The notes under the pieces were generated by a model, which made no database searches, was not told the DNA's origin, and was given only the letters and a program-made list of their open reading frames with translations. A stretch of DNA of 12,006 nucleotides from a virus (lineage: Duplodnaviria; Heunggongvirae; Uroviricota; Caudoviricetes): positions 1 to 12,006 of the IMG/VR virus record IMGVR_UViG_2609460346_000011; one strand, 5' to 3'. The translations under genes were made by a program, and so were the position numbers. Below, in pieces: positions 1 through 12,006 of this stretch; positions within the stretch are counted from its first letter, which is position 1; the number at the start of each line of letters is the position of its first letter.

Positions 1-1263
1 ATGAAACTGACTGATGTAGCTGTACGTAACGCCAAACCAGATAAGGACAACAACAAAATTAAAAAACTTCGAGACGGGAAAGGGCTGTATCTCTATGTTC
101 ACCCCAACGGCTCAAAATACTGGCGCTTTCGCAAGGTTATCAACGGTAAAGAAACGACCCGAGCTTTAGGCATTTATCCTGCCGTAACACTTGCACAGGC
201 AAGGAACGCTCGTGATGAATATCTGGCGAGCCTGGCTAAAGGCATTGACCCACTGCACACGCCAAAACCTCAAATAGTGCTTTTTGAAGACGTTGCCAGA
301 GAGTGGCACAGCCGGAAAAAGGGCTGGAGCGAATTACACGCGCAAAAAGTCTTAAAAGACCTGGAAAACCACATCTTCCCCATTCTAGGTAAAAGGCCAA
401 TTAACGAGATCACAACCATGGATCTACTGATTCCTTTACGCAAAATGGAAGATAAAGGAGTGCTTGAGACAGCATCACGTAACAAGCAGCGAATGAACGC
501 CATTATGCGCTACGCTGTACAGAATGGAATGATTAAATACAATCCAGCGCAGGAGCTAAACGGTGCAATCGAAACTAATAAAACCAAACATCGCCCTGCT
601 CTTCCCCTTGAGCGATTACCTGAATTACTTGGCAAAATAAATGATTACCACTATAAGATGAATGGACGGTTATTAACGCAATTTGCACTAAAATTAAATT
701 TATTAATTTTTATTCGCTCAAGTGAATTGCGTTTTGCTCGTTGGAATGAAATTGATTTTGATAAATCAATGTGGGTAATACCAGCAGAACGCGAAAAAAT
801 AGAAGGCGTAAAATATTCATATCGTGGAACGAAAATGGGAACCCCTCACGCCATCCCTTTACCCACTCAGGCCATGCAGCTTCTTGACGATATAAGAAAT
901 ATATCCGGTGATGAAGTGTTTATTTTCCCCGGCGACCATTACCAGATAAAACCAATGAGCGAAAACACCATTAACAAGGCATTACGCCACATGGGATACG
1001 ACACAAAAAAAGATATTTGTGGTCACGGATTCAGGGCCATGGCCTGTTCGGCGCTGACAGAGTCAGGCAGGTGGACAAGAGAAGCCGTTGAGCTTCAGAT
1101 GAGTCACAGGGAAAGAGGCAGTGTCCGGGCTGCATACGTTCACAGAGCTGAACATATGCAGGAACGCCGCCGAATGTTGCAATGGTGGGCTGATTATCTC
1201 GACACCTGCAAGACGGCATATATTGCCCCCTATGATTTTAAATGGGCTAACGAAACAGACTGA
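1..1263 (+). CDS. int: Tyrosine site-specific integrase, P4/CP4-57 (IntA-like) family, 420 aa
   Basis: Full-length ORF with TGA stop at 1261-1263. The N-terminus (LTD..VRNAKP...GKGLYLYVHPNGSKYWRFR...YPAVTLAQAR) matches the P4-type integrase N-terminal domain as I recall it. The C-terminus carries recombinase-like motifs (HGFRAM, RAAYVHRAE). The ORF starts on base 1, so the upstream attachment site and RBS are not visible. Confidence 0.9.
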   Translation: MKLTDVAVRNAKPDKDNNKIKKLRDGKGLYLYVHPNGSKYWRFRKVINGKETTRALGIYPAVTLAQARNARDEYLASLAKGIDPLHTPKPQIVLFEDVAREWHSRKKGWSELHAQKVLKDLENHIFPILGKRPINEITTMDLLIPLRKMEDKGVLETASRNKQRMNAIMRYAVQNGMIKYNPAQELNGAIETNKTKHRPALPLERLPELLGKINDYHYKMNGRLLTQFALKLNLLIFIRSSELRFARWNEIDFDKSMWVIPAEREKIEGVKYSYRGTKMGTPHAIPLPTQAMQLLDDIRNISGDEVFIFPGDHYQIKPMSENTINKALRHMGYDTKKDICGHGFRAMACSALTESGRWTREAVELQMSHRERGSVRAAYVHRAEHMQERRRMLQWWADYLDTCKTAYIAPYDFKWANETD

Positions 1264-1863
1264 ATCAACTCAACAAACTAAACTACCCCAAGCGGCTGAA
1301 TTAAACTCAAGGCGTGGACAATATGTGGACACGCCGATTTTTTTATCTTTTAAAATCAATAGAATAAGACACTACTAAAAGCACCTAGTGATTTTTTAGC
1401 CTCAAAACCAAGTATATCTATTTGATTTTTAATGTGTTTTTAATTAATGACCAGTTCTTTTGATAAAAACTAGAAAATCAAACTGTTTTATCGATATTGT
1501 TTTTTGATATGCATCACATTTTCAACTCTTTTTTTGTTTTCAGAATCCACTATTCCAGCGTTCGCAAGCATTGCATCCCCCCGGAACGGGCTTTCCTGGT
1601 GCCTGAAAGGGTAAGTCAGCAAACCTTTCTGGCACTAACTTGTTATTCTTTGTCGCTTTCTGGCGGTTTAAAGTGGCTCTAAATGTATATTTCACGCATG
1701 GAACAAATCTAACTGTCCATGTCAACCCCATCTGAAAATCGACCTGATTTACAAATCCGCTTTTCGTTGTTTATGATTTTTCTCGTCCCGCAGACGACCG
1801 CGAGATCTTACATGCTCCCACTGTGAGCTAACGTAAAGTGTTCAGCATATACAGGAGGCCAAT

Positions 1864-2085
1864 ATGTCAGCATACTCACAGACCAGCGAAAGGCGGATTC
1901 AAAAATTAATAAGACTCCCCAGAGTCATTGAAATCACAGGGAGATCAAGAGCTCGAATTTACGAAGATATAAAATCTGATATCTTCCCCAAACCAATAAA
2001 AATAGGCCCTCGTGCGGTTGCATGGGTTGAAGAAGAAATTATCGACTGGATAGAAGAAAGAAAACAACAACGTTTTCAGGCTTAA
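1864..2085 (+). CDS. alpA: AlpA-family phage transcriptional regulator / excisionase-like protein, 73 aa
   Basis: Strong SD (caggagg) 6 nt upstream of the ATG. The pattern IRLPRVIEITGRSRARIYEDI...FPKPIKIGPRAVAWVEEEIIDWIEER fits the AlpA/Vis helix-turn-helix signature (TG.SR..IY ... FPKP.K.G.R.V.W...EI..W). Confidence 0.85.
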   Translation: MSAYSQTSERRIQKLIRLPRVIEITGRSRARIYEDIKSDIFPKPIKIGPRAVAWVEEEIIDWIEERKQQRFQA

Positions 2086-2701
2086 TTATTTTCATTTTAT
2101 AGTCAGCATGGCGCGATATGCGCCTAAACACTTCATACAATAAGAAACATCACTTAACCAAAGATGCATTCATGGTTTAAAAGATGCTCTACCCTTGTTA
2201 AGGAAACCGGAGTAAACAGATATAACAAAATAAAAGAAAGTGGACTATCAGAGGGATATTTTCATCTGTACGTCACACGTAAGAAATATATTTCAAGGAG
2301 CTAAGTTTAAAATCAACATTTATTTACAGAGTATAAAATTGAGTTATTCCGGTTACATTAACCGGATTGGGTGAACTGTTATGATAAATACAAGTAATGG
2401 CGACGTGGGTATATTCTCCACGAGGCATAAACAAACAAACGCTTTAAACATCATAACCGGATGTCCGGGAATACAGCATTATCCTGCTGACTGGAGCGGG
2501 CACATTGCTACATGTGAGGGAAGGAGGCCGGGTACTGGCAGCAGAGTCAAAAAAAGAAGCTCGCTAAAGCTAGCGAGCCAACCAGTCAGTAGTACGCGAT
2601 GGATCTGACATTAAGAATAATAGGCAGAAATAATTATGGCTTTTTTACTCTTAAAAATCAATCACTCAGCGCAAGTGAGCAAAAATAATTTGCAATATTG
2701 C

Positions 2702-2731
2702 TTGACTCGCTTTTTTGTCATGGCGTATCGT
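2702..2731 (+). promoter_or_regulatory. Putative sigma70-like promoter (TTGACT, ~18 bp spacer, TATCGT) reading into the repeat region
   Basis: TTGACT at 2702-2707 and a weak -10 candidate TATCGT at 2726-2731, with AT-rich DNA upstream. Pattern match only. Confidence 0.25.
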
Positions 2732-2756
2732 TTGCCCGCACCTCATAAAGCGGGTG

Positions 2757-2941
2757 CCGGGTTTAGCAGCCTGAACAATCAAGCGGGTAGCCGCTATATT
2801 TCCGTAATGCGGTTTTTTTGTGCCCGTAATTCCACCCTACCCCGTATTATGGCGGGGCGGAATGGGGGGGCCTTTGCGCTCGCTGGTTCCTTGATTGCCA
2901 GTCTGCTAACCCTGTTACGTCCCGCCACCATGTTTAGCAGC
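2757..2941 (+). promoter_or_regulatory. Non-coding region with direct 10-mer repeats (GTTTAGCAGC at 2761-2770 and 2932-2941) and an internal partly complementary segment (2897-2914); candidate RNA-RNA regulatory module
   Basis: The exact 10-mer occurs twice 171 bp apart. The reverse complement of 2897-2914 (CAGGGTTAGCAGACTGGC) aligns with the first repeat context (CCGGGTTTAGCAGCCTG) at about 14 of 16 positions with one bulge. The 173-aa ORF called across this region translates to low-complexity sequence that does not look protein-like. Confidence 0.35.
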
Positions 2942-2983
2942 GTGCTGGCGAGACTCCGTAAACTTAATCAAGGAGCCGCCAAA

Positions 2984-3157
2984 ATGGCTATATCAACACG
3001 CCCTGATTTTATCTGGCGCTTTATGCAGTGCCACGGTAAAAATATTCGCCTTCATACCGTTACCGCTGCCAGTGAGCGCGAAGCGCGCGCCATGCTTCCG
3101 GCATCCCGTCTGGTCTTTGTTGCCCGTATCCGTGTCCGGGAGGCGTGCCATGTTTAA
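2984..3157 (+). CDS. Hypothetical small protein, 57 aa
   Basis: Internal ATG of the 2636..3157 ORF, with SD AGGAG at 2971-2975 eight nt upstream. Its stop overlaps the next gene's start. No family recognised. Confidence 0.45.
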   Translation: MAISTRPDFIWRFMQCHGKNIRLHTVTAASEREARAMLPASRLVFVARIRVREACHV

Positions 3158-3332
3158 GCTCCTTATCACCCTGATTAACTACCAGAACGGCGACGTTCGC
3201 CAGATGATTCATTCCTGGGAATATCCGACTTATGACGATGCATGGCGTGATGCCTGTCGTATGGCATATTCCCGCAATGACAAACAGGGGCGATTAACCC
3301 ACAAATGCGCAGTAAAAATCATGGAGGGGTAA
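3150..3332 (+). CDS. Hypothetical small protein, 60 aa
   Basis: ATG at 3150 preceded by GGGAGG (3135-3140) and overlapping the stop of the upstream ORF (translational coupling). The longer 3072 start lacks an RBS and overlaps the upstream gene. No family recognised. Confidence 0.4.
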   Translation: MFKLLITLINYQNGDVRQMIHSWEYPTYDDAWRDACRMAYSRNDKQGRLTHKCAVKIMEG

Positions 3333-3334
3333 CG

Positions 3335-3523
3335 ATGTACGAGATTCATATTAAATTGCGTAATGTGGTAACAGGAGAGGAAGAAAACTTCTACACGATA
3401 CGTAAATATAAATCAAAAGGAAAAGCGGCAAGGGACGCTATCAGGTATACGGAAGAAATTGCGCCGAAATATCAATTGCCAGAAGAAGAATTCACAGCAT
3501 CAGTGGTAAAGGTGAAGAAATGA
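3335..3523 (+). CDS. Hypothetical small protein, 62 aa (Lys/Glu-rich)
   Basis: ATG at 3335 with SD GGAGGGG five nt upstream; stop TGA overlaps the next start (ATGA at 3520-3523). No family recognised. Confidence 0.45.
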   Translation: MYEIHIKLRNVVTGEEENFYTIRKYKSKGKAARDAIRYTEEIAPKYQLPEEEFTASVVKVKK

Positions 3524-3738
3524 AAAGCCGTTCAATATCCCGTAAAAATAATGGCAGTGGTGAAAAACGTTTCTTTGTGTTGGGTTATGCCGTTAATAAA
3601 CGTGGGTTAACCAAACATGCACATGCAACGGTATACGGAACAGGACCGGGCGAAGCCATACGCCGCGCAGCCGAAGGGCTGGAAGAGCTGGGAATGACAC
3701 ATTTCAGGGCATTGAAGGTTACGCAGCTTTCCGCCTGA
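3520..3738 (+). CDS. Hypothetical small protein, 72 aa
   Basis: Start overlaps the upstream stop (ATGA) and a purine-rich stretch lies upstream. No family recognised. By position it could correspond to the small ORFs preceding the primase gene in P4-like elements. Confidence 0.45.
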   Translation: MKSRSISRKNNGSGEKRFFVLGYAVNKRGLTKHAHATVYGTGPGEAIRRAAEGLEELGMTHFRALKVTQLSA

Positions 3739-3805
3739 TTCCTTAATTACCAACTGATAACTGAATTAAATTTATATTTCGATCTTAACGGGTCGGGGAG
3801 TTTTT

Positions 3806-4105
3806 ATGTCTAAACGTCAGAATAGCGAAATTTTTTTAGATAGAGAATATGCTGGCTTTTTTACAGAAAGTGCAAAGGAAGATCTCACAGATGTGATTAA
3901 TCTCGTCAGTTTAATATCTGTGGTCTTTGGCGATAAAAATGGTAGAGCATCAGCAGAAATTATAAATGAAGAAATTGTATCTCTGTCTAACATTATTTAT
4001 AGGGAATTACAATCAATAAAATCTGGTATGCATTCATCCGGCGGAATTTTTTCATGGCATAGCGCCGAAACCGCCGGGATTGCCAAAGCAATAAGCAACG
4101 AGTAA
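3806..4105 (+). CDS. Hypothetical protein, 99 aa, encoded in a markedly AT-rich segment
   Basis: SD GGGGAG six nt upstream of the ATG. Codon usage and GC content are clearly lower than in the flanking genes. A perfect hairpin follows immediately downstream. Confidence 0.5.
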   Translation: MSKRQNSEIFLDREYAGFFTESAKEDLTDVINLVSLISVVFGDKNGRASAEIINEEIVSLSNIIYRELQSIKSGMHSSGGIFSWHSAETAGIAKAISNE

Positions 4106-4115
4106 TTAATAAAAA

Positions 4116-4140
4116 CCCCACTGCAAAAGGTGCAGTGGGG
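4116..4140 (+). terminator. Perfect 10-bp stem hairpin (CCCCACTGCA / AAAGG / TGCAGTGGGG), intrinsic terminator or RBS-sequestering structure
   Basis: Perfect inverted repeat seen directly, preceded by an A-tract and followed by a U-rich stretch. The right arm overlaps the purine-rich SD (GGTGGAG, 4138-4144) of the primase gene. Confidence 0.5.
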
Positions 4141-4153
4141 TGGAGTTTTATAT

Positions 4154-6823
4154 ATGAAATCTGACATCAGAAAAGAGATTATTAACCGTCTTATCCGTGA
4201 TTACAACTTCAAAGAAGAAAATAACTACCTCCGATATGGTGTTTGTCCACAATGTGGAAAGAAAGAGCTGTTTACCAGCCTTGAGAAGCCGTACATCGTA
4301 CACTGCGGGCGTGAAAATAAATGCGGTACAGACCTGCTAACCAAAGAACTTTACCCGGATGTGTTTTCATCATGGTCAGATCGCTATATCAGCACGAAAG
4401 ACGAGCCATATGCAGCGGCGGCAGCTTATCTTCAGGAGGCGCGCAATATTGCTGTGGAGCCACTGAAAGGGGTATTCACTCAGGAGCGATACCAGGACAA
4501 GGAAAGCGGCGAACAGGCCGCTACCGTGCGTTTTACACTGGCTGACGGCGTGTGGTGGGAGCGCATCATAGACCGACCGGAACGCTTCGAACGGAAGGCG
4601 AATTTTTCCGGCAGCTACAAGGGGCTGTGGTGGGCTTATCCGGGAACAGATTTAAGCAGGGCCAAGGAAATCTGGATTTGTGAGGGTGTCTTTGATGCAA
4701 TCAGCCTTAACCAGAATGGCATTGCGGCCGTTTCTGTCATGTCTGCCGTGAATTATCCTGATGAGGCGCTGGAAGAACTGGCAAAGCAGTGCGGAGATAA
4801 TCCCCGTCCGGTTATTGTGTGGGCGCTGGATAACGGGCGTGCAGGTGAGCGTTACGCGAAAAAACATGCAGAACGCAGCGCCGAAGACGGCTGGAGAACG
4901 GCGGCGGCGTTACCGGGTAAAAACAGCAATAAACGCGACTGGAATGATTTACACACCGCCGGAAAGCTGCGTAGCCATGATGTAAAAAGATACCGTTATT
5001 ACGGTGATTTATTACTGGCGAAATCCCCAAGAGATAAGGCGCTGATAATATTTTCCTTTTGTGAGCGGAAGGAATTTCATTTTACCTTTGATAACCGTGT
5101 TTTCTGGTTCAAACTGGACATTGAGCGCTATATGAAGGCTGTTGAGCGTGCCAAGAATGAGCGAAATGTTGATGAGGATGAAGCGCGCAAAATTGCACTT
5201 AAGGAATCCGGTACTGTAAAAGAAATCGCAAACTGTAACCCAGCGCCGCTTTATTACATTCGAAATAATGATACGGATGAAGCCTGGTATTACTTCCGTG
5301 TTACGTTCCCGGATGGTGCTACGGTGAAAAACACCTTTACATCAGGACAATTAACATCCGCATCTGAATTTAAAAAACGCCTGTTGCATGTGGCAAAAGG
5401 CGGTATTTATACCGGAACGACTGCGCACCTTGATGCATTAATAAAAAATGACCTTCCCGCAATAAAAAATGTTATCGGTCAGGATTTTATCGGATACAAC
5501 AAAGAGATTGGCGCGTGGCTGTTTAATGATGTCGCGGTTTGTAATGGTAAAACCTACGAAATCAATGAAGAGGATTATTTTGAAATTGATGGCATAAACG
5601 CAAAACCATTGAATAAAAAACCAATATTGCAGATTAACTATAAAAAACCGGATAAATTTACAATATCCTGGGTGGAAGATCTCTGGCTGGCGTTTGGTGA
5701 AAAGGGAATTATTACCCTGGCCTTCTGGCTGGGTTCGTTGTTCAGCGAACAAATCAGGCAGAAAAACACGTCTTACCCTTTTCTTGAGATTACCGGAGAG
5801 CCTGGAACGGGTAAAACAACGCTGATTGATTTTTGTTGGCGTTTGTGTGGCCGTGACAACTATGAAGGTGTTGATCCAACCAAAGGATCGGAATCAGGCT
5901 GGAAGCGAACTTTTGGACAGGTCGCCGGATTACCTGTTGTTCTGATTGAAGCAGACCGGGGAGACAATGCGCAAAAAAGAGGCGCGTTTGACTTCGATAA
6001 CCTGAAAAGCCTCTATAACGGTGGTGGTATTGGGGTACGTGGCGTTAAAACCAATGATAACGCCACATATGACCCCGTTTTTAAGGGGGCTGTCGTGATT
6101 GCGCAAAATGCCACGGTAAACGCCTCGTCGGCAATTATTGAGCGCCTGGTACGTGTATACACCGATAAAAAACGCCACTCACCAGATAGCCGACTGGCAG
6201 CAAAACGGCTGGAGCTTTACCCCGTTGAGCAGGTATCAGGTTTTATCCATCGGGCAGTAAGTCAGGAACGGACGATTATGGAGACGTTTATGGCACTCTC
6301 GGATTCTGAGACAACCCGCCTTTATAGTTGCGAAAATATTCGTCATCAGCGTATTGCCAAAAATCACGCGCAACTTATCGCGCTGGTCAGGGCGCTGAAA
6401 TGCGTTATTGATATCCCGGATGAATGGCTTGATGCCACATGTCTGGAACTGGAGCGAATGGCAGAGGAACAGGCTAAAGCGGTAATGGATGACTTGCCGG
6501 AAGTGATGGCGTTCTGGGAGACGTTCGACTATCTGGACGGCATCACAGCATACGGCGTAAATCATTTTGGCAAGGGACGGCAGAATGAGTTTGCCATCAG
6601 TATCCCGCAACTTGAGCAGGTTGCCGCCGTTCACCACGTGAAGATCCAAACCAATCCCGAAATGATAAAGCTTCTCAAGGCTGGCCGTTCTCGATCGCTG
6701 ATTGGATACAAGCCCGTCCGTAGCGAGGTATCCAGACAGGCGAACGCCGGGAGGGGAATAGCCGAGGCCAGAGAGAAGGAGGTATTGAAATGCTGGATAT
6801 TTAGTAACAAGGAGGGGGCTTAA
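4154..6823 (+). CDS. DNA primase/helicase-type replication initiator (zinc ribbon + TOPRIM/EGxxD primase + P-loop NTPase), P4 alpha-like in architecture, 889 aa
   Basis: Start taken at the ATG at 4154 (MKSDIRK) rather than the upstream in-frame ATG inside the hairpin. N-terminal Cys cluster CPQCGKK...HCGRENKCG; EGVFDA primase-type motif followed by an acidic DNGRAGE segment; Walker A GEPGTGKTT near residue 550. Confidence 0.85.
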   Translation: MKSDIRKEIINRLIRDYNFKEENNYLRYGVCPQCGKKELFTSLEKPYIVHCGRENKCGTDLLTKELYPDVFSSWSDRYISTKDEPYAAAAAYLQEARNIAVEPLKGVFTQERYQDKESGEQAATVRFTLADGVWWERIIDRPERFERKANFSGSYKGLWWAYPGTDLSRAKEIWICEGVFDAISLNQNGIAAVSVMSAVNYPDEALEELAKQCGDNPRPVIVWALDNGRAGERYAKKHAERSAEDGWRTAAALPGKNSNKRDWNDLHTAGKLRSHDVKRYRYYGDLLLAKSPRDKALIIFSFCERKEFHFTFDNRVFWFKLDIERYMKAVERAKNERNVDEDEARKIALKESGTVKEIANCNPAPLYYIRNNDTDEAWYYFRVTFPDGATVKNTFTSGQLTSASEFKKRLLHVAKGGIYTGTTAHLDALIKNDLPAIKNVIGQDFIGYNKEIGAWLFNDVAVCNGKTYEINEEDYFEIDGINAKPLNKKPILQINYKKPDKFTISWVEDLWLAFGEKGIITLAFWLGSLFSEQIRQKNTSYPFLEITGEPGTGKTTLIDFCWRLCGRDNYEGVDPTKGSESGWKRTFGQVAGLPVVLIEADRGDNAQKRGAFDFDNLKSLYNGGGIGVRGVKTNDNATYDPVFKGAVVIAQNATVNASSAIIERLVRVYTDKKRHSPDSRLAAKRLELYPVEQVSGFIHRAVSQERTIMETFMALSDSETTRLYSCENIRHQRIAKNHAQLIALVRALKCVIDIPDEWLDATCLELERMAEEQAKAVMDDLPEVMAFWETFDYLDGITAYGVNHFGKGRQNEFAISIPQLEQVAAVHHVKIQTNPEMIKLLKAGRSRSLIGYKPVRSEVSRQANAGRGIAEAREKEVLKCWIFSNKEGA

Positions 6824-6825
6824 GT

Positions 6826-7827
6826 ATGTCGATCAGAAAGATGGATGATGGGCGATGGCTGCTCGATATCAGGCCCCAAGGGGCGTACGGCAAACGGATA
6901 CGTAAAATTTTTGTCAGGAAAGGGAGTGCGGAGGTCTTCAAAGAACATATTTTACAGAATTTCCATAACAACCCATGGCTGGCTAAACCTGCTGATCGAC
7001 GGAGATTATCAGAGCTGCTTGATATATGGTGGATGCTTGATGGCCGTAACCAGGCTTACGGTGATACCTACAGGATTCGGATGGAGAAAGTGATTCGTGA
7101 AATGGGAGATCCGCGTGCCAGCCAGATGACGCAAAAATTTATGCTTGAGTATCGGTCAGAGAAATTACAGGCCGGCTTAATGCCATCCAGCATTAATCGT
7201 GACTTGTGCGTTCTGTCTACCATGTTCACGGTGCTGATTGAAGCTGAGGTCTTTCACAACCCGAACCCTGTACGCGGTATACGCAAGCTAAAAATTCAGA
7301 ATACAGAGATGGCCTTTCTTTCTGATGATGAGATTGAGCGGCTTCTTGAGCGACTGGAGGGGGATGCGCGTCGTGTTGCCATTCTGTGTCTTTCTACTGG
7401 TGCCCGATGGAGTGAAGCATCGGAACTACGTGGAGAGCACATCATTGGCAACCGGGTGACGTTCTTTAACACCAAAAACGGAAAATCCCGTTCGGTTCCT
7501 GTGGCTGATTCGGTCGTGCCGCTGATTAAGACCCACCGGACAGGGGTGTTGTATCAGGTTGATTATCTGAAGTTCCGGGAGATCCTTCAGGAGGTGAAGC
7601 CGGATTTACCGAAGGGGCAGGCTACGCATGTCATGCGTCATACATTTGCCACACACTTTATGATGAATGGCGGAAATATTGTTACGTTACAACGAATCCT
7701 GGGGCATGCCACGATTCAACAGACAATGACGTACGCGCATTTTTCTCCCGACTATCTGGCGGATGCCATGAGGTTTAACCCGATAGCTAACATGGCATTC
7801 ACTGAACAAGAAGAGCCAGCAGAGTAA
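6826..7827 (+). CDS. int: Tyrosine integrase, P2 Int-like family, 333 aa
   Basis: Near end-to-end resemblance to the P2 integrase as I recall it (MSIRKMDDGRWLLDIRPQG..GKRIRK...AILCLSTGARWSEA...GQATHVMRHTFATHFMMNGGNIVTLQRILGH...TYAHF). Catalytic Arg, HxxR box and Tyr are present. The ATG lies 2 nt after the primase stop, with the SD (AAGGAGGGGG) inside the primase 3' end. Confidence 0.85.
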   Translation: MSIRKMDDGRWLLDIRPQGAYGKRIRKIFVRKGSAEVFKEHILQNFHNNPWLAKPADRRRLSELLDIWWMLDGRNQAYGDTYRIRMEKVIREMGDPRASQMTQKFMLEYRSEKLQAGLMPSSINRDLCVLSTMFTVLIEAEVFHNPNPVRGIRKLKIQNTEMAFLSDDEIERLLERLEGDARRVAILCLSTGARWSEASELRGEHIIGNRVTFFNTKNGKSRSVPVADSVVPLIKTHRTGVLYQVDYLKFREILQEVKPDLPKGQATHVMRHTFATHFMMNGGNIVTLQRILGHATIQQTMTYAHFSPDYLADAMRFNPIANMAFTEQEEPAE

Positions 7828-7857
7828 CCCGCAGAACGCTACATTCACAGCAAAAGA

Positions 7858-7882
7858 GGTCAGTTTTCCACTGGCCTTTTTT
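7858..7882 (+). terminator. Rho-independent terminator after the P2-type integrase
   Basis: Stem GGUCAG/CUGGCC (one G-U pair) with a 7-nt loop, followed by a run of six T. Confidence 0.6.
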
Positions 7883-8073
7883 GTTGGCCAAAGCCAACGG
7901 TAACAGCAATGCGATGGAGGCCATATTGCAGTGGTGTCGCCATCAATTTTTTTTGCTCTCCCCCCTGGTTATCAGAAAGAGTCAAATAATGGCGAGATAC
8001 ATTTCAATAACAGAGAGTTAATGATAGAGATACAGAATAAGTGAGTTTGATTAACATTTTAAAGGGTCGCGCT

Positions 8074-8397
8074 AAAATCCGGGGGGGGGTGCGGAAACGG
8101 GTTACAAAGGTTACAAACAGAAAAATATATTATATATCAATACATTATAATACATTTAAAAGGTTACAAACGGGTTACAACAGGGTTACATGTAACCTTT
8201 ATGTAGTGGTTACTGTTGGTTACAGGTTAAATTTATAATTAATTGATAATTAATCTGTTTTTGAGAGCTGCAACCTCGTGTAACCTTCTGTAACCTCAAA
8301 AAGGTTACAAGAAATATGTTTTAAAATCATATGACTATAGTGTGTTTTAGGGGGTTGTAACCTTTGTAACCCGTTTCCGCACCCCCTACCGGATTTT
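8074..8397. repeat. Iteron cluster: about 12 copies of GGTTACA/TGTAACC in both orientations around AT-rich DNA, bounded by 43-bp inverted repeats (8074-8116 and 8355-8397, 41/43 identity); putative replication origin
   Basis: Counted directly: forward copies at 8100, 8109, 8162, 8173, 8184, 8219, 8303; reverse copies at 8191, 8279, 8289, 8356, 8365. Includes the palindrome GGTTACATGTAACC at 8184-8197. The interior is AT-rich and there is no convincing coding potential. Confidence 0.6.
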
Positions 8398-8614
8398 GAG
8401 GCAGAGCCCCAAAACAACTGGCCTGACCTCTAACAAAAATGCAACATTAATCATTGATTTTTTGGGGGCTGTCAGTCACGGGGAGTTGCCCTGTTGTTTG
8501 GCAGAAAAATGAAGTATGTACATGCGCGGCGGGGATGGTAAAAAACGTAATACACGCGGCGCAGTTGCCATAAAAAATCTCTCAAAAGCACTCTTTTTGA
8601 CGCTATTGTTCATC

Positions 8615-8644
8615 TGCACAAAAGTGCACAAATTTGCACAATTT
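8615..8644. repeat. Three direct TGCACAA(A/T) repeats phased at exactly 10 bp (8615, 8625, 8635), with a fourth copy at 8707
   Basis: Direct reading of TGCACAAAAG TGCACAAATT TGCACAATTT. Helical-turn phasing suggests a protein binding array or bent DNA. Confidence 0.4.
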
Positions 8645-9004
8645 TTTAGAGTAACTTTTTGCCCATCCGGCCCAGTACTGGCGCGCCCGGAGGGCGATTT
8701 CGTGCGTGCACAAAAAACGGTGAGTTTTTCGCGCGCAGGTGACGGGGGAACAGCACGCGTTTCAGGGGGTAAATTACATTTTCGCTAAAGGCTGCGGGAA
8801 TGCCCCGACCGGGTTAGTTTTATCGCCAGCCAGAGCCGTTCTTACGGCAAGAGAGAACTGATACGGGGAATGTGACGAGTGAGCATGGGAACGGCGCGCC
8901 CGTGCGTAATACGCGGCGACTGCTGCGGGTTTATTTGATACAGCCAGAGGGGGGCGGCAGAAGATATAATAGGTTAAATTTCACACCAGTAAGAGGAGCG
9001 TGAT

Positions 9005-9187
9005 ATGTCTTTCCCTTGCCCGGCCTGTGGCGCTTCAGCCCGCACCCGTGGTCGTTCGTTGGAAGAACACGAACAAAACATCTACAGAACGTATTACCAG
9101 TGCAATAATATTGAGTGTGGGGCTTGTTTTTGTACGCTTGAGTCGTTTGTACGCATTACTAAGCGCAGGAAGTCGAAAACTTCATAG
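9005..9187 (+). CDS. ogr: Ogr/Delta-family zinc-finger late-gene transcriptional activator, 60 aa
   Basis: SD AAGAGGAG upstream. CPAC...(x)...YQCNNIECGACFCTLESF matches the Ogr/Delta C-x2-C / C-x4-C zinc-finger signature and the FxTxES motif of P2 Ogr as recalled. Confidence 0.85.
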   Translation: MSFPCPACGASARTRGRSLEEHEQNIYRTYYQCNNIECGACFCTLESFVRITKRRKSKTS

Positions 9188-9237
9188 TGATTTGTATAAC
9201 ACAGCCAGCGAGTGTGACCGGCTGCGTTATTTCTGTA

Positions 9238-9471
9238 TTACGTCGTGTGGTTCTGGTCATTTGCCCAGGCCCACACATCCCCCGCTACATTGCGCCCGTT
9301 GCAGTCTTCTTCCTGCGTTTCCCCGGCCTTAATTCCCTGACTGATAAACATTCTGACGCACTGGGAGTAGTTCATCTCTCTGTCCTGACATATCTGATTT
9401 ATTTTATGGTCGATTTCGTGCGGGATACGAATACAGCGTAATACGCATCGCATTTTCTTTTGTTTTTTCAT
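9238..9471 (-). CDS. Small hypothetical protein (77 aa) with a ribbon-helix-helix-like N-terminus; possible DNA-binding regulator
   Basis: Minus-strand ATG at 9471 preceded by AGGGAGG at seven nt spacing. The N-terminus MKKQKKMRCVLRCIRIPHEIDHKINQICQDREMNYSQCVRMFI has a strand-helix-helix pattern reminiscent of Arc/CopG-type proteins. The overlapping + strand ORFs look like junk. Family assignment is tentative. Confidence 0.4.
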   Translation of the reverse strand: MKKQKKMRCVLRCIRIPHEIDHKINQICQDREMNYSQCVRMFISQGIKAGETQEEDCNGRNVAGDVWAWANDQNHTT

Positions 9472-9626
9472 AGTGTTGCCTCCCTGATTGTTTATGCCGG
9501 GATTTAACACCCGCGATACAAGAAAGCGTAATACAACAGTATTGTGAGCGTATTACGAGAACAAAATCGGCTGGAATGTATTACGCAATATGGAAAAAAT
9601 CGGCGTAAGTAAAAAAATGTATTACA
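9436..9626. promoter_or_regulatory. Divergent intergenic/promoter region with five copies of GCGTAATAC/GTATTACGC in both orientations
   Basis: Motif at 9436, 9526, 9549 (inverted), 9577 (inverted) and 9618 (partial). Related longer copies (CGTAATACRCGCGG) occur at about 8549, 8899 and inside the capsid gene at about 11177. Confidence 0.35.
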
Positions 9627-9636
9627 GGAGCAAATA

Positions 9637-10347
9637 ATGGATATAACTCAGGCAAGCGCCGAACATCAGGTATGTAAAGCACAGTTTGATACAGCCATGG
9701 CAAAACTCAGTGAACAGGAATCATTAATCACCAATCTGGAAGCAACTATCGAACAGACGAAAGGGGAGCTGGAATCTCTCGATCGTGACTGGCAGAACTC
9801 AATCCTGTCTGCGCTGGGCGTAAAAACGGAAGCCTCCGCGAAATTATCCATTCAGGCGGGTGTGGCGCGAGAAAATCTTGAGCGTCTGCGGGTGCTGCAT
9901 GATGAGGCGCGCATCAGGCTACTGGAGTGTCGTTATAACGCGGCAGAGGCTGGTTGTGCTTACGAAAGCATTGATAATAAGTTGCGGGCAGAGATATTTG
10001 CAAAAGCACTTCCCGAACTGATTAACGAGCTGACCCCTGCTCTGTTATTGATTCGTGGTTTATGTGAGCTGCTTGGCCAGCCGCTGTATAACGCAGAAAA
10101 GAAAATATGCGAAACACTGAAAGCGACAGATACTGCTGAAAGTGTCGGGATGATTCGCGGCCGGATTAACGATACCGAAAGCGACACCTCCAGCCCGCTG
10201 CGTTATTGCCCGGAGAAACTCCCGGATTCGGTAAGCCGCGCAATCAGGAACGCCCCTTCACCTGTACAATGGAGCGCGGCGCGACAGAATCCAGAAAAAA
10301 TGCGCGACCTTGCGGAGGGCAGAGAACTCTGCCGGGGGTGGCAGTAA
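9637..10347 (+). CDS. Coiled-coil alpha-helical protein, 236 aa; putative capsid scaffold or size-determination-like (Sid/Psu/GpO-like) protein
   Basis: SD AGGAG seven nt upstream. The sequence is rich in Ala/Leu/Glu heptad-like segments. It sits immediately upstream of, and is translationally coupled to, the capsid gene (TAATG overlap at 10345-10349). The coding call is reasonably safe; the function is inferred from position and composition only. Confidence 0.5.
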   Translation: MDITQASAEHQVCKAQFDTAMAKLSEQESLITNLEATIEQTKGELESLDRDWQNSILSALGVKTEASAKLSIQAGVARENLERLRVLHDEARIRLLECRYNAAEAGCAYESIDNKLRAEIFAKALPELINELTPALLLIRGLCELLGQPLYNAEKKICETLKATDTAESVGMIRGRINDTESDTSSPLRYCPEKLPDSVSRAIRNAPSPVQWSAARQNPEKMRDLAEGRELCRGWQ

Positions 10348-11618
10348 TGGGCGGTCTGAATACTCCACATTTGCACGGCGCTGATATAGTGAGCCGACTC
10401 AGGGGATTAATGTCCCGGAATCGCCTGAAAGCAAACACAGCAAGCATAAGCGATGAGACGCGTCGCGCGCTGGACAATGAATATCAAAAACTGGAGCGTG
10501 AGCTTGAGCTTCACACCCTGCATACTGCAAGCGGTGGGGGTAATAACGACGGCATTGAGCGTTATAATTGCACTGCTGATTCTGTTGTATCACAACGAAA
10601 TCAACAGGCTCAGATGGTTTTCAATTGCGCTATCGAGTCGATAACCGGAAAGCATCCGAAGGATTTGCACTTTTCTGGTGACACTGCGCGCTATTCGTCA
10701 GAAGTTGAACCCGTTCCCCGCCAGAGTGCAACGCTTGCCAGTGGATGGCAGGCAAATTTCCTTGCTGAAATAACTCCCGTGCCTGTTACGGATATATCAG
10801 GTCGGGTTGTGCTGGTAGACGCTTCGGGGCCGTTGGCACGTACATCGCCACCTCACGAGCGCCGTTCGCCACTACAGGCGCATTCACTGGTTTCAAGGGG
10901 CTACCGCTGCGAGCAGGTTAATTTTGATTTTGCGCTGAACTACGACAATGTTGATGCTCACACATCCGCAAACGGTCTTGAAGGAAGCGCACGGGCTGCT
11001 TTTGAACGCCGGAAATGGCTGGATTTGATTCAGATTGGTTTTAACGGTACGCACTATGCCGATACATCAGATCCCGGAACATATCCGGGGCGTGATGATT
11101 GCGGCGTGGGCTGGTTGCAGAAGTTTCGAAATGAAGCGGCGGGAAGGGTTATCAGCGGCCTTTCTGTTTCATCACCGAAAAGTAATACACGCGGTACACA
11201 CCATACGATAGATGCGCTCGTTCTGGATGCCTGGCAATCCATGATTGATGAACAGTGGCAGGAAGGCATTGTGGCCGTATGCAGTCACAATACGCTGGTC
11301 CGTAAGCAATGGCCTTTGATAAACCGTCTTGATCCATCGCAGATGAATCAGGAAATTTTGCTTAACGAGGAAATCATTAAAAATCCCGTTCTGGGGAATC
11401 TCCCGGCTGTGACCGTTCCATTTTTCCCGGACAATGCTGTATTGATCACACCTCTTGCCAATCTGTGTCTGTACTGGCAGCGTGGTTCCGTTCGTGGCCT
11501 GGTAAAAAACGAGCCTCAGTATAATCGCCTCGCGTTCTATGAGTCCTGTAACCTTGACTGGGTGGTGGGGCAATATGAGGCAGGGTGCTTACTGGATGGG
11601 ATTGACTGGAAAGAATAG
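10347..11618 (+). CDS. Major capsid protein, P2 GpN-like family, 424 aa from the ATG at 10347 (alternative internal start at 10614)
   Basis: Extended motif agreement with P2 GpN as I recall it: CEQVNFDF, GFNGTHYADTSD, GVGWLQKFRNEAAGRV, IDALVLDA, GNLPAVTVPFFPDNAVLITPLANL, YESCNLDWVVGQYEAGCLLDGI. SD-like GGGGGTGG lies upstream of the 10347 ATG. About 89 residues precede the region that aligns with the GpN N-terminus. Confidence 0.8.
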   Translation: MGGLNTPHLHGADIVSRLRGLMSRNRLKANTASISDETRRALDNEYQKLERELELHTLHTASGGGNNDGIERYNCTADSVVSQRNQQAQMVFNCAIESITGKHPKDLHFSGDTARYSSEVEPVPRQSATLASGWQANFLAEITPVPVTDISGRVVLVDASGPLARTSPPHERRSPLQAHSLVSRGYRCEQVNFDFALNYDNVDAHTSANGLEGSARAAFERRKWLDLIQIGFNGTHYADTSDPGTYPGRDDCGVGWLQKFRNEAAGRVISGLSVSSPKSNTRGTHHTIDALVLDAWQSMIDEQWQEGIVAVCSHNTLVRKQWPLINRLDPSQMNQEILLNEEIIKNPVLGNLPAVTVPFFPDNAVLITPLANLCLYWQRGSVRGLVKNEPQYNRLAFYESCNLDWVVGQYEAGCLLDGIDWKE

Positions 11619-11640
11619 CAAGGAAATTTCCGGTAACGTT

Positions 11641-11658
11641 GAGGGCTTCTCAGCCCTC
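11641..11658. terminator. Hairpin GAGGGC/TTCTCA/GCCCTC between convergent genes; probable bidirectional terminator
   Basis: Perfect 6-bp GC-rich stem followed by CTTTTACTT on the + strand. It lies between the capsid stop (11616-11618) and the toxin stop (11662-11664). Confidence 0.5.
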
Positions 11659-11661
11659 CTT

Positions 11662-12006
11662 TTACTTAAGCAGATGCTCTCCACCAATCAGGGTTATGAC
11701 TCTTTCAAGCACATCATTAAATACCCCATCTTCTGCCTCTGTGATTAAGCGCGCTTTCCGCTGACGCCAGTCAAGGGTTTGAATGAGTGTGGTTGCTACC
11801 ACGCTGGGGGCGTCCAGATTTGTTACCGGAACTTCTGTGGGAGCATTTCGTATGCTCGTACTTATGGAGCAGCATATGACAAGCCCGGTGAGTCGGTTAT
11901 ATTGCTCATGGGATAGTATGAGTGCCGGGCGATACTTTCCGATCTCTTTTCCTTTCTGCGGCTCAAAATCCAGCCAGCAAATATCACCACGCTTAGGTAC
12001 AAACAT
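11662..12006 (-). CDS. Type II toxin, MazF/PemK/Kid-family endoribonuclease, 114 aa
   Basis: RGDICWLDFEPQKGKEIGKYRPALILS...LTGLVICCSISTS...VATTLIQTLDWRQRKARL follows the MazF/PemK pattern (RGDI..V.FDP..G.E..G.RPALVLS). The start codon sits on the last three bases of the window, so the upstream partner gene and promoter are not visible. Confidence 0.8.
   Translation of the reverse strand: MFVPKRGDICWLDFEPQKGKEIGKYRPALILSHEQYNRLTGLVICCSISTSIRNAPTEVPVTNLDAPSVVATTLIQTLDWRQRKARLITEAEDGVFNDVLERVITLIGGEHLLK

Follow-up and report, generated by a model that had tools for sequence, protein, structure and literature searches.

An exchangeable, attP-free helper-type integrase cassette in the replication operon of probable P4-like satellites of P2-like phages

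Satellites of bacteriophages are known to control their helpers by means of anti-repressors, late-gene activators, capsid remodelling and the redirection of packaging. When examining a 12,006-nucleotide stretch of caudoviral DNA (positions 1 to 12,006 of the IMG/VR record IMGVR_UViG_2609460346_000011, hereafter the window), which represents nearly the entire length of a small island, we found that this element, probably a P4-like satellite of P2-like phages with a capsid gene of its own, carries, directly after the primase gene, a second integrase gene of the helper type, here denoted int2. The element resembles P4 in its P4-type integrase, AlpA, a CI/C4-type immunity RNA upstream of an operon that ends in the primase/helicase gene, a probable iteron origin after the primase, an Ogr/Delta activator, a cos-like region of the P2 type and the apparent dependence on P2-like helpers; it differs from P4 in that sid and psu were not detected among the open reading frames (ORFs) scanned, in the possession of a P2-family capsid gene and in the presence of int2. 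In a survey of P4-like elements, an integrase was found beside the alpha gene in less than 1% of cases and was attributed to neighbouring mobile elements (PMC8628076). Beyond this remark, the literature that we searched contains no description of a second integrase in P4-like elements or in phage-inducible chromosomal islands (PICIs). The protein family itself is ordinary; the novelty lies in the arrangement, namely, a helper-type integrase cassette that lacks attP, is fixed in the replication operon and is swapped among specificities.

The int2 gene encodes a protein of 333 amino acids in which the Pfam domains Int_N (PF24624; 100.7 bits, cutoff 27) and Phage_integrase (PF00589; 67.2 bits, cutoff 27.1) are recognized. 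The best match among solved structures is the P2 integrase (5c6k, E = 1.4e-94, residues 47-322), followed by the HP1 integrase (1aih, E = 7.5e-46), and the identity to P2 Int is 54-55%. By these comparisons, Int2 is a P2-family (P2/HP1/186-type) integrase. With the P2 integrase (5c6k, 5dor) and the P2-like Ints, for example, that of the serS/dmsA type (vB_EcoM-569R5), it has in common the order of domains and the catalytic hexad. The predicted arm-binding domain (approximately residues 1-46), which aligns with the N-termini of P2 and P2-like Ints, is followed by the core-binding (approximately 47-160) and catalytic (approximately 161-310) domains and by a satellite-specific tail (residues 311-333, FNPIAN..EEPAE). 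The six catalytic residues (R194, K217, H268, R271, H294 and Y303) are retained in Int2 as well as in all 15 aligned satellite and phage homologues, and Int2 looks catalytically competent. The ATG of int2 (6826-6828) is located 2 nucleotides past the TAA stop codon of the primase gene (6821-6823), and its Shine-Dalgarno sequence, AGGAGG (6810-6815, plus strand), precedes this ATG by 10 nucleotides and is still inside the 3' end of the primase gene. An earlier note on this DNA, made from the sequence alone, had described int2 as a complete, apparently active P2-type recombinase translationally coupled to the primase, and this description is borne out in each of its parts. Unlike P2 int, int2 is not adjacent to C/cox or attP, is coupled to a primase gene, resides in a satellite that integrates via a P4-type integrase, and has an acidic tail in place of the 3' end that carries the P-arm.

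Outside the window, the satellite primase family was detected in 66 of the 5426 complete Escherichia coli genomes. At each of the 13 loci inspected (L001, L006-L008, L011, L018-L022 and L025, together with L012 and L013, which have a different primase), int2 starts 2-3 nucleotides past the primase stop codon or overlaps it; all inspected copies are full-length, and none of the 13 loci contains a frameshift. The satellites occupy two chromosomal sites, argW and gcd-hpt, each of which has its own left-end integrase, and the int2 allele of the window is found at both sites, so int2 does not decide the chromosomal location. It is the left-end P4-type integrase, and not int2, that places the satellite in the chromosome; the earlier note had recognized this gene as a separate, P4-type integrase, and its domain architecture is indeed of that type. 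None of the inspected satellite copies is located at a P2-like attachment site, all of them being at argW or gcd-hpt.

Within this single primase family, int2 is represented by at least four alleles with protein sequence identity of only 47-59%. By approximate counts, allele A, that of the window, is carried by 21 genomes, allele B by 11, allele C by 29 and allele D by about 7. The primase genes of the respective backbones are 83-97% identical at the nucleotide level, and the DNA around int2 is conserved to the same degree. The core-binding domain is only 34-51% identical between alleles. The divergent tract is located inside int2: in the comparison with L008, similarity to the window is lost at approximately 6852-7360, and in the comparison with L011, at approximately 6876-7597. 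In L018 (allele D) and in L011 and L021 (allele C), the 330 nucleotides downstream of the gene are identical, with Ints that are 47% identical. All four alleles end in the same C-terminal tail (FNPVAN..EPAE). Over the first 17 codons, alleles A-C show 76-100% identity to the window, and allele D, the N-terminus of which is phage-like, shows only 41%. Nucleotides 6863-7788 (plus strand) are 88% identical to the int gene of P2-like prophages located between serS and dmsA, and the 5' 37 nucleotides and 3' 40 nucleotides of int2 are satellite-specific. Thus, int2 is a helper-type (Peduoviridae) integrase gene that occupies the last position of the replication/early operon of the satellite as a constant but exchangeable cassette. 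Among satellite copies of allele A, the ratio of nonsynonymous to synonymous substitution rates (dN/dS) is 0.07-0.11, and the copies of allele C in 29 genomes show at least 97.7% identity; together with the lack of disrupted copies, these values imply that int2 is maintained by selection. As judged from these comparisons, the gene is under purifying selection, and the part of it that determines specificity has been replaced repeatedly. The clear exchange of a part of int2 with prophage int, along with the lack of correlation between the allele and the backbone haplotype, could also be taken to mean that int2 has no role and is a by-product of recombination or a selfish cassette. We consider this to be very unlikely because every family member inspected has the full-length gene, an Int of this type also follows the replication gene in two other satellite families, the translational coupling is conserved, dN/dS is low, and no copy at the 13 loci is frameshifted, in contrast to the int gene of a P2-like prophage in E. 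coli TOE17, which is.

The nearest non-satellite relative of each allele is the Int of a P2-like prophage that is encoded beside C, cox and P2-type early genes, and the attachment site of these prophages is different for each allele. For allele A, this is the prophage between serS and dmsA (84-87% amino acid identity, with 97% in the catalytic and 89% in the core-binding domain, and approximately 88-92% nucleotide identity); for allele B, a prophage beside pheA (73%); for allele C, P88/Xuanwuvirus (82%); and for allele D, a prophage beside mazEF-like genes and ppa (88%). The P-arm pair of Int-binding sites of these phages is contained in the final codons of int (GTGTCCATAAACTGTCCAT in the serS/dmsA phage and GTGTCCACGCAGTGTCCACG at the 3' end of P88 int). 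In every satellite allele, this arm-site-encoding 3' end is swapped for the satellite-specific tail, indicating that the enzyme was kept and attP was left out. The DNA similarity between the window and the closest phage ends at the int stop codon. The core of the serS/dmsA phage attachment site (AAAGCGCCTGCGGGCGCTTT, 20 bp, in the serS terminator) and its arm sites were defined from attL and attR, and this core was not found in the window with up to 3 mismatches. An attP in common with the closest phage was considered and rejected, as a short-word BLAST search of the phage attR against the window produced chance matches only. The P88-type attP region and the allele-C satellites have nothing significant in common, no paired GTCCAY arm sites were found near int2, and no allele-linked site is present within 330 nucleotides downstream of the gene. 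Hence int2 is not part of a P2-type integration module that consists of int, attP and C/cox. The suggestion in the earlier note that the gene could serve as an alternative integration module is not supported, given the missing core, the loss of the arm-site 3' end and the location of all inspected copies at the site of the left-end integrase.

A related possibility is that Int2 acts on the DNA of the satellite itself, either in multimer resolution, as also suggested previously, or in a second integration module with an attP of its own. Such a function would be in line with the cotranscription of int2 with the primase gene, its position next to the origin and the capacity of P4-type elements to replicate as plasmids (PMC8628076). 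Nevertheless, we regard this possibility as unlikely. The core-binding domain was swapped and the nearby non-coding DNA remained unchanged, to the point that the flanks of alleles C and D are identical; the core of the cognate phage is missing from the window, the arm-site pair at the 3' end of int is deleted in every allele, and no copy resides at a P2-like attachment site. A resolution site would have to change with the core-binding domain, but no allele-linked site lies in the 330 nucleotides downstream of the gene and none was recognized elsewhere; with the centre of int exchanged in otherwise identical backbones, multimer resolution appears unlikely. A tyrosine recombinase encoded beside replication functions is, in itself, a familiar arrangement, as in Cre/lox, ResD/rfsF and Xer/cer. 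However, the recombinases of these systems work at a fixed adjacent site and do without an arm-binding domain, whereas Int2 keeps the arm-binding domain, no site for it was found, and its specificity domain is swapped without a change in cis. The known resolution recombinases generally lack such a domain, which also counts against a role of Int2 on satellite DNA.

One further observation that could favour action on satellite DNA is a P2-type arm-site-like pair in the left part of the element, CGTGTCCACATATTGTCCACG, the sole paired motif of this type in the window. This pair is identical in 17 of 20 positions to the P-arm Int pair of P88-like phages and is located 50 nucleotides past the stop codon of the P4-type integrase gene, within a terminator-like hairpin with a U-tract. 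The paired GTCCAY scan by which it was detected covered approximately 296 kb of fetched loci and otherwise returned only genuine phage arm sites. The pair may be a binding site for the N-terminal domain of Int2. However, its distribution follows that of the argW left module (L001, L008, L012 and L013), and it is missing from the gcd-hpt satellites, including those with the same Int allele; because the pair follows the left module and not int2, it cannot be a general Int2 target.

The repeat-rich region with inverted repeats to which the earlier note had drawn attention is real. A 43-nucleotide inverted repeat (8074-8116 and 8355-8397, 95% complementary) forms the ends of a region with two AT-rich blocks and 12 GGTTACA iterons (between 8100 and 8371), a motif that occurs 15 times in the whole window compared with 1.4 expected by chance. 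Both the GGTTACA motif and the inverted repeat are kept in L008, L011 and L018, which carry alleles B, C and D with Ints that are only 47-58% identical, and both are absent from L012, where the Int is 83% identical and the primase is different. The repeats co-vary with the primase type and not with the int2 allele, so they are origin-like and are not treated here as an Int target; the iterons as Int sites were discarded on the same grounds. P4 has an iteron origin of such a form, and the region is, judging from its repeats, a probable replication origin for the primase/helicase. The earlier note had also raised the possibility that Int2 is an invertase acting on these inverted repeats; it would then flip the inner 238 bp (8117-8354) as a switch. 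The presence of a recombinase gene next to the inverted repeat recalls the FimB/FimE switches, in which a tyrosine recombinase gene likewise adjoins inverted repeats. In the satellites, however, the repeats consist of the same GGTTACA iterons as the segment between them and go with the primase. The five relatives compared (L001, L006, L007, L008 and L011) all have the inner segment in one orientation, with no inverted variant among them. Int2 is, moreover, a heterobivalent phage-type integrase and not a Fim- or Hin-type invertase, and it belongs to a subfamily different from that of FimB and FimE. We therefore find the invertase explanation hardly credible.

The swapping of alleles suggests that the satellite manipulates the integration or excision of the helper rather than its own. 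Excision of P2 requires both Int and Cox. The P2 int gene is transcribed together with the repressor gene C from the promoter Pc, which is shut off by Cox, so that little Int is available after derepression, and this shortage is the classical account of the non-inducibility of P2 prophages. The position of int2 in the primase operon, downstream of the C4/CI-type RNA, suggests that it is expressed in the active phase of the satellite: Int2 would be made together with the primase once the satellite leaves RNA-mediated immunity. A derepressed or infecting helper would then make Cox but little Int. Int2, acting in trans on the attachment sites of P2-like helpers, would recombine attL and attR of the helper together with the helper Cox and IHF, and the excised prophage would replicate and provide more late proteins to the satellite. 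Exchange of the core-binding/catalytic part of int2 with the int gene of a resident prophage would retarget the satellite to another helper lineage. A helper-directed function of Int2, with the helper attachment sites as the substrate and excision as the favoured direction, is the explanation that we prefer, albeit with somewhat less than even confidence. More tentatively, we propose that int2 is a retargetable, attP-free copy of the helper Int, the core of which recombines with the int of resident prophages, and that it excises a co-resident, non-inducible P2-like prophage, bypassing the Int limitation; under this composite proposal, the same device, a P2-type Int after a replication gene, would be present in at least three unrelated enterobacterial satellite families.

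Several genome comparisons link the satellite to P2-like prophages. The part of the window between 6000 and 9200 is 99.8% identical to an island of E. coli TOE17, and the same strain carries a P2-like prophage at serS/dmsA (L024, NZ_CP069093.1, 3308623-3336321). The whole window has exactly two DNA segments in common with this prophage, namely, the int segment described above (88%) and the cos-like segment (80%). A second match to int was detected in 8 of the 21 carriers of allele A and, in 6 of the 21, is not linked to a second primase copy. A non-satellite cognate int is thus present in 6 of 21 allele-A carriers compared with 301 of the 5405 other genomes (Fisher p = 8e-4), and, with the carriers collapsed to approximately 14 lineages, in 5 of 14 (p = 7e-4), in statistics that come from few, partly clonal genomes, with the second int copy inspected directly in TOE17 only and the other five taken from match counts. 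Of the 308 genomes that have a P88-type int, the 60 listed include at least two carriers of allele C, where 0.32 would be expected; this is no more than suggestive. As a separate observation, the portal, terminase, capsid, tail and ogr genes of the TOE17 prophage are annotated as intact.

The size and clonality of this sample and the limited direct inspection weigh against helper-directed excision, as do several other findings. In 15 of the 21 allele-A carriers, no cognate prophage is detectable by megablast. The TOE17 prophage is defective, with int frameshifted, cox cut by IS1 and the early/replication genes lost, so it could not respond in that strain. Allele B has no phage counterpart in the complete E. 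coli genomes, and for the Int of another satellite type, with a PerC-family gene, the phage collection contains no relative with more than 58% identity; taken together with the identity of only 73% for the nearest relative of allele B, this means that helper matching is not demonstrated for every allele. Between allele A and the cognate phage, the identity of the arm-binding N-terminal domain is only 53-62%, which makes the use of the cognate phage arm sites by this allele uncertain. Finally, P2 prophages are exploited by P4 without being excised, and it is therefore not obvious that a satellite would need its helper to excise.

The evidence of phage-matched specificity would also apply if Int2 were directed against helper or competing P2-like phages, by forced integration, abortive excision or the poisoning of mixed Int tetramers through the altered C-terminal tail, with a lower helper yield or the exclusion of superinfecting phages as the outcome. 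The acidic, satellite-specific tail that replaces the phage tail in every allele fits this scheme, and so do the frequent interference of satellites with their helpers and the defence cargo of P4-like elements (PMC9122126). However, five divergent lineages retain the complete set of six catalytic residues under purifying selection, and a pure blocker would not need them; we consider interference quite unlikely and retain the excision of helper prophages as the preferred function.

A P2-type Int also follows a replication gene in two other satellite types, one with a DUF927 primase (L012) and the other represented by L014-L016, with an AAA_25 helicase, a PerC-family gene and a protease-capsid fusion. 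The latter type is widespread in E. coli (near yejM and a tRNA region in L014-L016), with the gene order P4-type int, AlpA, DUF4222, AAA_25 helicase, P2-type Int, PerC-family gene and ClpP-protease/capsid fusion; its Int (P0108, 334 amino acids) overlaps the PerC-family gene. The satellites are modular in other respects: in L012 and L025, the capsid genes may precede the immunity region rather than occupy the right end, a hok-type toxin can stand in place of MazEF and a DUF927-type primase in place of the usual one, and the order primase-int2-ogr is constant across these variants. A scan of genome contigs with the C-terminal half of the primase returned a single locus, L011, so that the breadth outside E. 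coli is thinly sampled.

Perhaps the most relevant functional model for Int2, by analogy, is AlpA_1 of the E. coli PICI EcCIMP1, a second AlpA-type excisionase that promotes excision of the helper and not that of the island (PMC11773190), that is, a satellite-encoded recombination factor that serves helper excision. Unlike Int2, the role of which we infer, AlpA_1 is a directionality factor, its helper is a P22-like podovirus and its function was tested experimentally. Satellites of Mycolicibacterium that induce prophage excision (preprint PMC12822802) were considered as another parallel and set aside because no helper-type integrase is involved. If the proposed role of Int2 is correct, the integration state of the helper would join the list of traits that are controlled by satellites, which would bear on the old puzzle of the non-inducibility of P2 prophages caused by Int shortage. 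It would also explain the 'second integrases' that satellite-finding pipelines treat as contamination from neighbours, and the int2 allele could predict the lineage of P2-like prophages that a given satellite exploits. Should Int2 serve the satellite DNA instead, it would be an unusual arm-binding recombinase for plasmid-type maintenance.

The layout of the element is summarized in Table 1. In TOE17, the island is flanked by the tRNA-Arg gene argW, beside yfdC, on one side and by dsdC on the other. The set of P4-like core features found in the window comprises int, AlpA, the Toprim primase, Ogr_Delta, C4 RNA and cos. The isrK-like and C4 RNAs form an RNA immunity element of the P4/P1 type upstream of the operon that ends with the primase gene and int2, and several small ORFs are located between this element and the primase gene. 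In the RefSeq annotation, both RNAs (2738-2932) fall within an ORF for an 'Icd-like protein' (2636-3157).

Table 1. Features of the satellite in the 12,006-nucleotide window
Feature	Positions	Strand	Basis or remark
P4-type integrase gene, left end	1-1263	+	Pfam Arm-DNA-bind_3 + Phage_int_M + Phage_integrase; correlates with the chromosomal site argW
Candidate arm-site pair CGTGTCCACATATTGTCCACG, two TGTCCAC repeats, 11-bp period	1312-1332	-	Paired GTCCAY scan
AlpA gene	1864-2085		Pfam
isrK-like RNA	2738-2819	+	Rfam, 52 bits
C4 antisense RNA	2845-2932	+	Rfam, 67 bits
Toprim primase/helicase gene, P4 alpha analogue	4154-6823	+	PHROG 1139, Pfam
int2, P2-family tyrosine integrase gene, allele A	6826-7827	+	333 amino acids
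Hairpin with U-tract, intrinsic-terminator-like	7848-7886	+	-23.7 kcal/mol, z = -4.6; ends the primase-int2 unit
Probable replication origin, iterons and inverted repeats	8074-8397	n/a	Repeat analysis and co-variation
cos-like region	8615-8780	n/a	80% identity to DNA beside the portal gene of the TOE17 P2-like prophage
Ogr/Delta zinc-finger gene	9005-9187		
236-amino-acid ORF, then P2-family major capsid gene	within 9637-11618		
MazEF	right part	opposite	

The primase start at 4154 was taken from the RefSeq annotation of TOE17, and the mechanical ORF begins at 4130. Directly 5' of the annotated start, at 4115-4141, there is a perfect hairpin with an 11-bp stem (7 GC pairs) and T-runs on both sides; this hairpin resembles a terminator on either strand and could act as an attenuator within the early operon. 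The cos-like region matches DNA adjacent to the portal gene and hence is probably cos. The same segment also matches unannotated DNA of many other E. coli genomes, and it is overlapped by a RefSeq 'hypothetical protein' (8516-8788) that may not be a gene. No match to Psu or Sid was found among the ORFs scanned in the window, and a P2-family capsid gene is present there instead. The satellite capsid protein, 423 amino acids long when counted from the RefSeq start at 10347, is extended by approximately 119 amino acids at its N-terminus and is only 34.5% identical to the capsid protein of the TOE17 prophage. The 236-amino-acid ORF located 5' of the capsid gene has no Pfam or PHROG match and no resemblance to gpO, and is a candidate for a scaffold or size-determination factor. 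Finally, homopolymer tracts vary in length among the otherwise conserved satellites, namely, a C6-C10 tract after a T-run (7961-7972 in the window) and a G8-G9 tract at the outer end of the 43-nucleotide repeat (8083-8091 in the window, and the equivalent positions in L006-L022).

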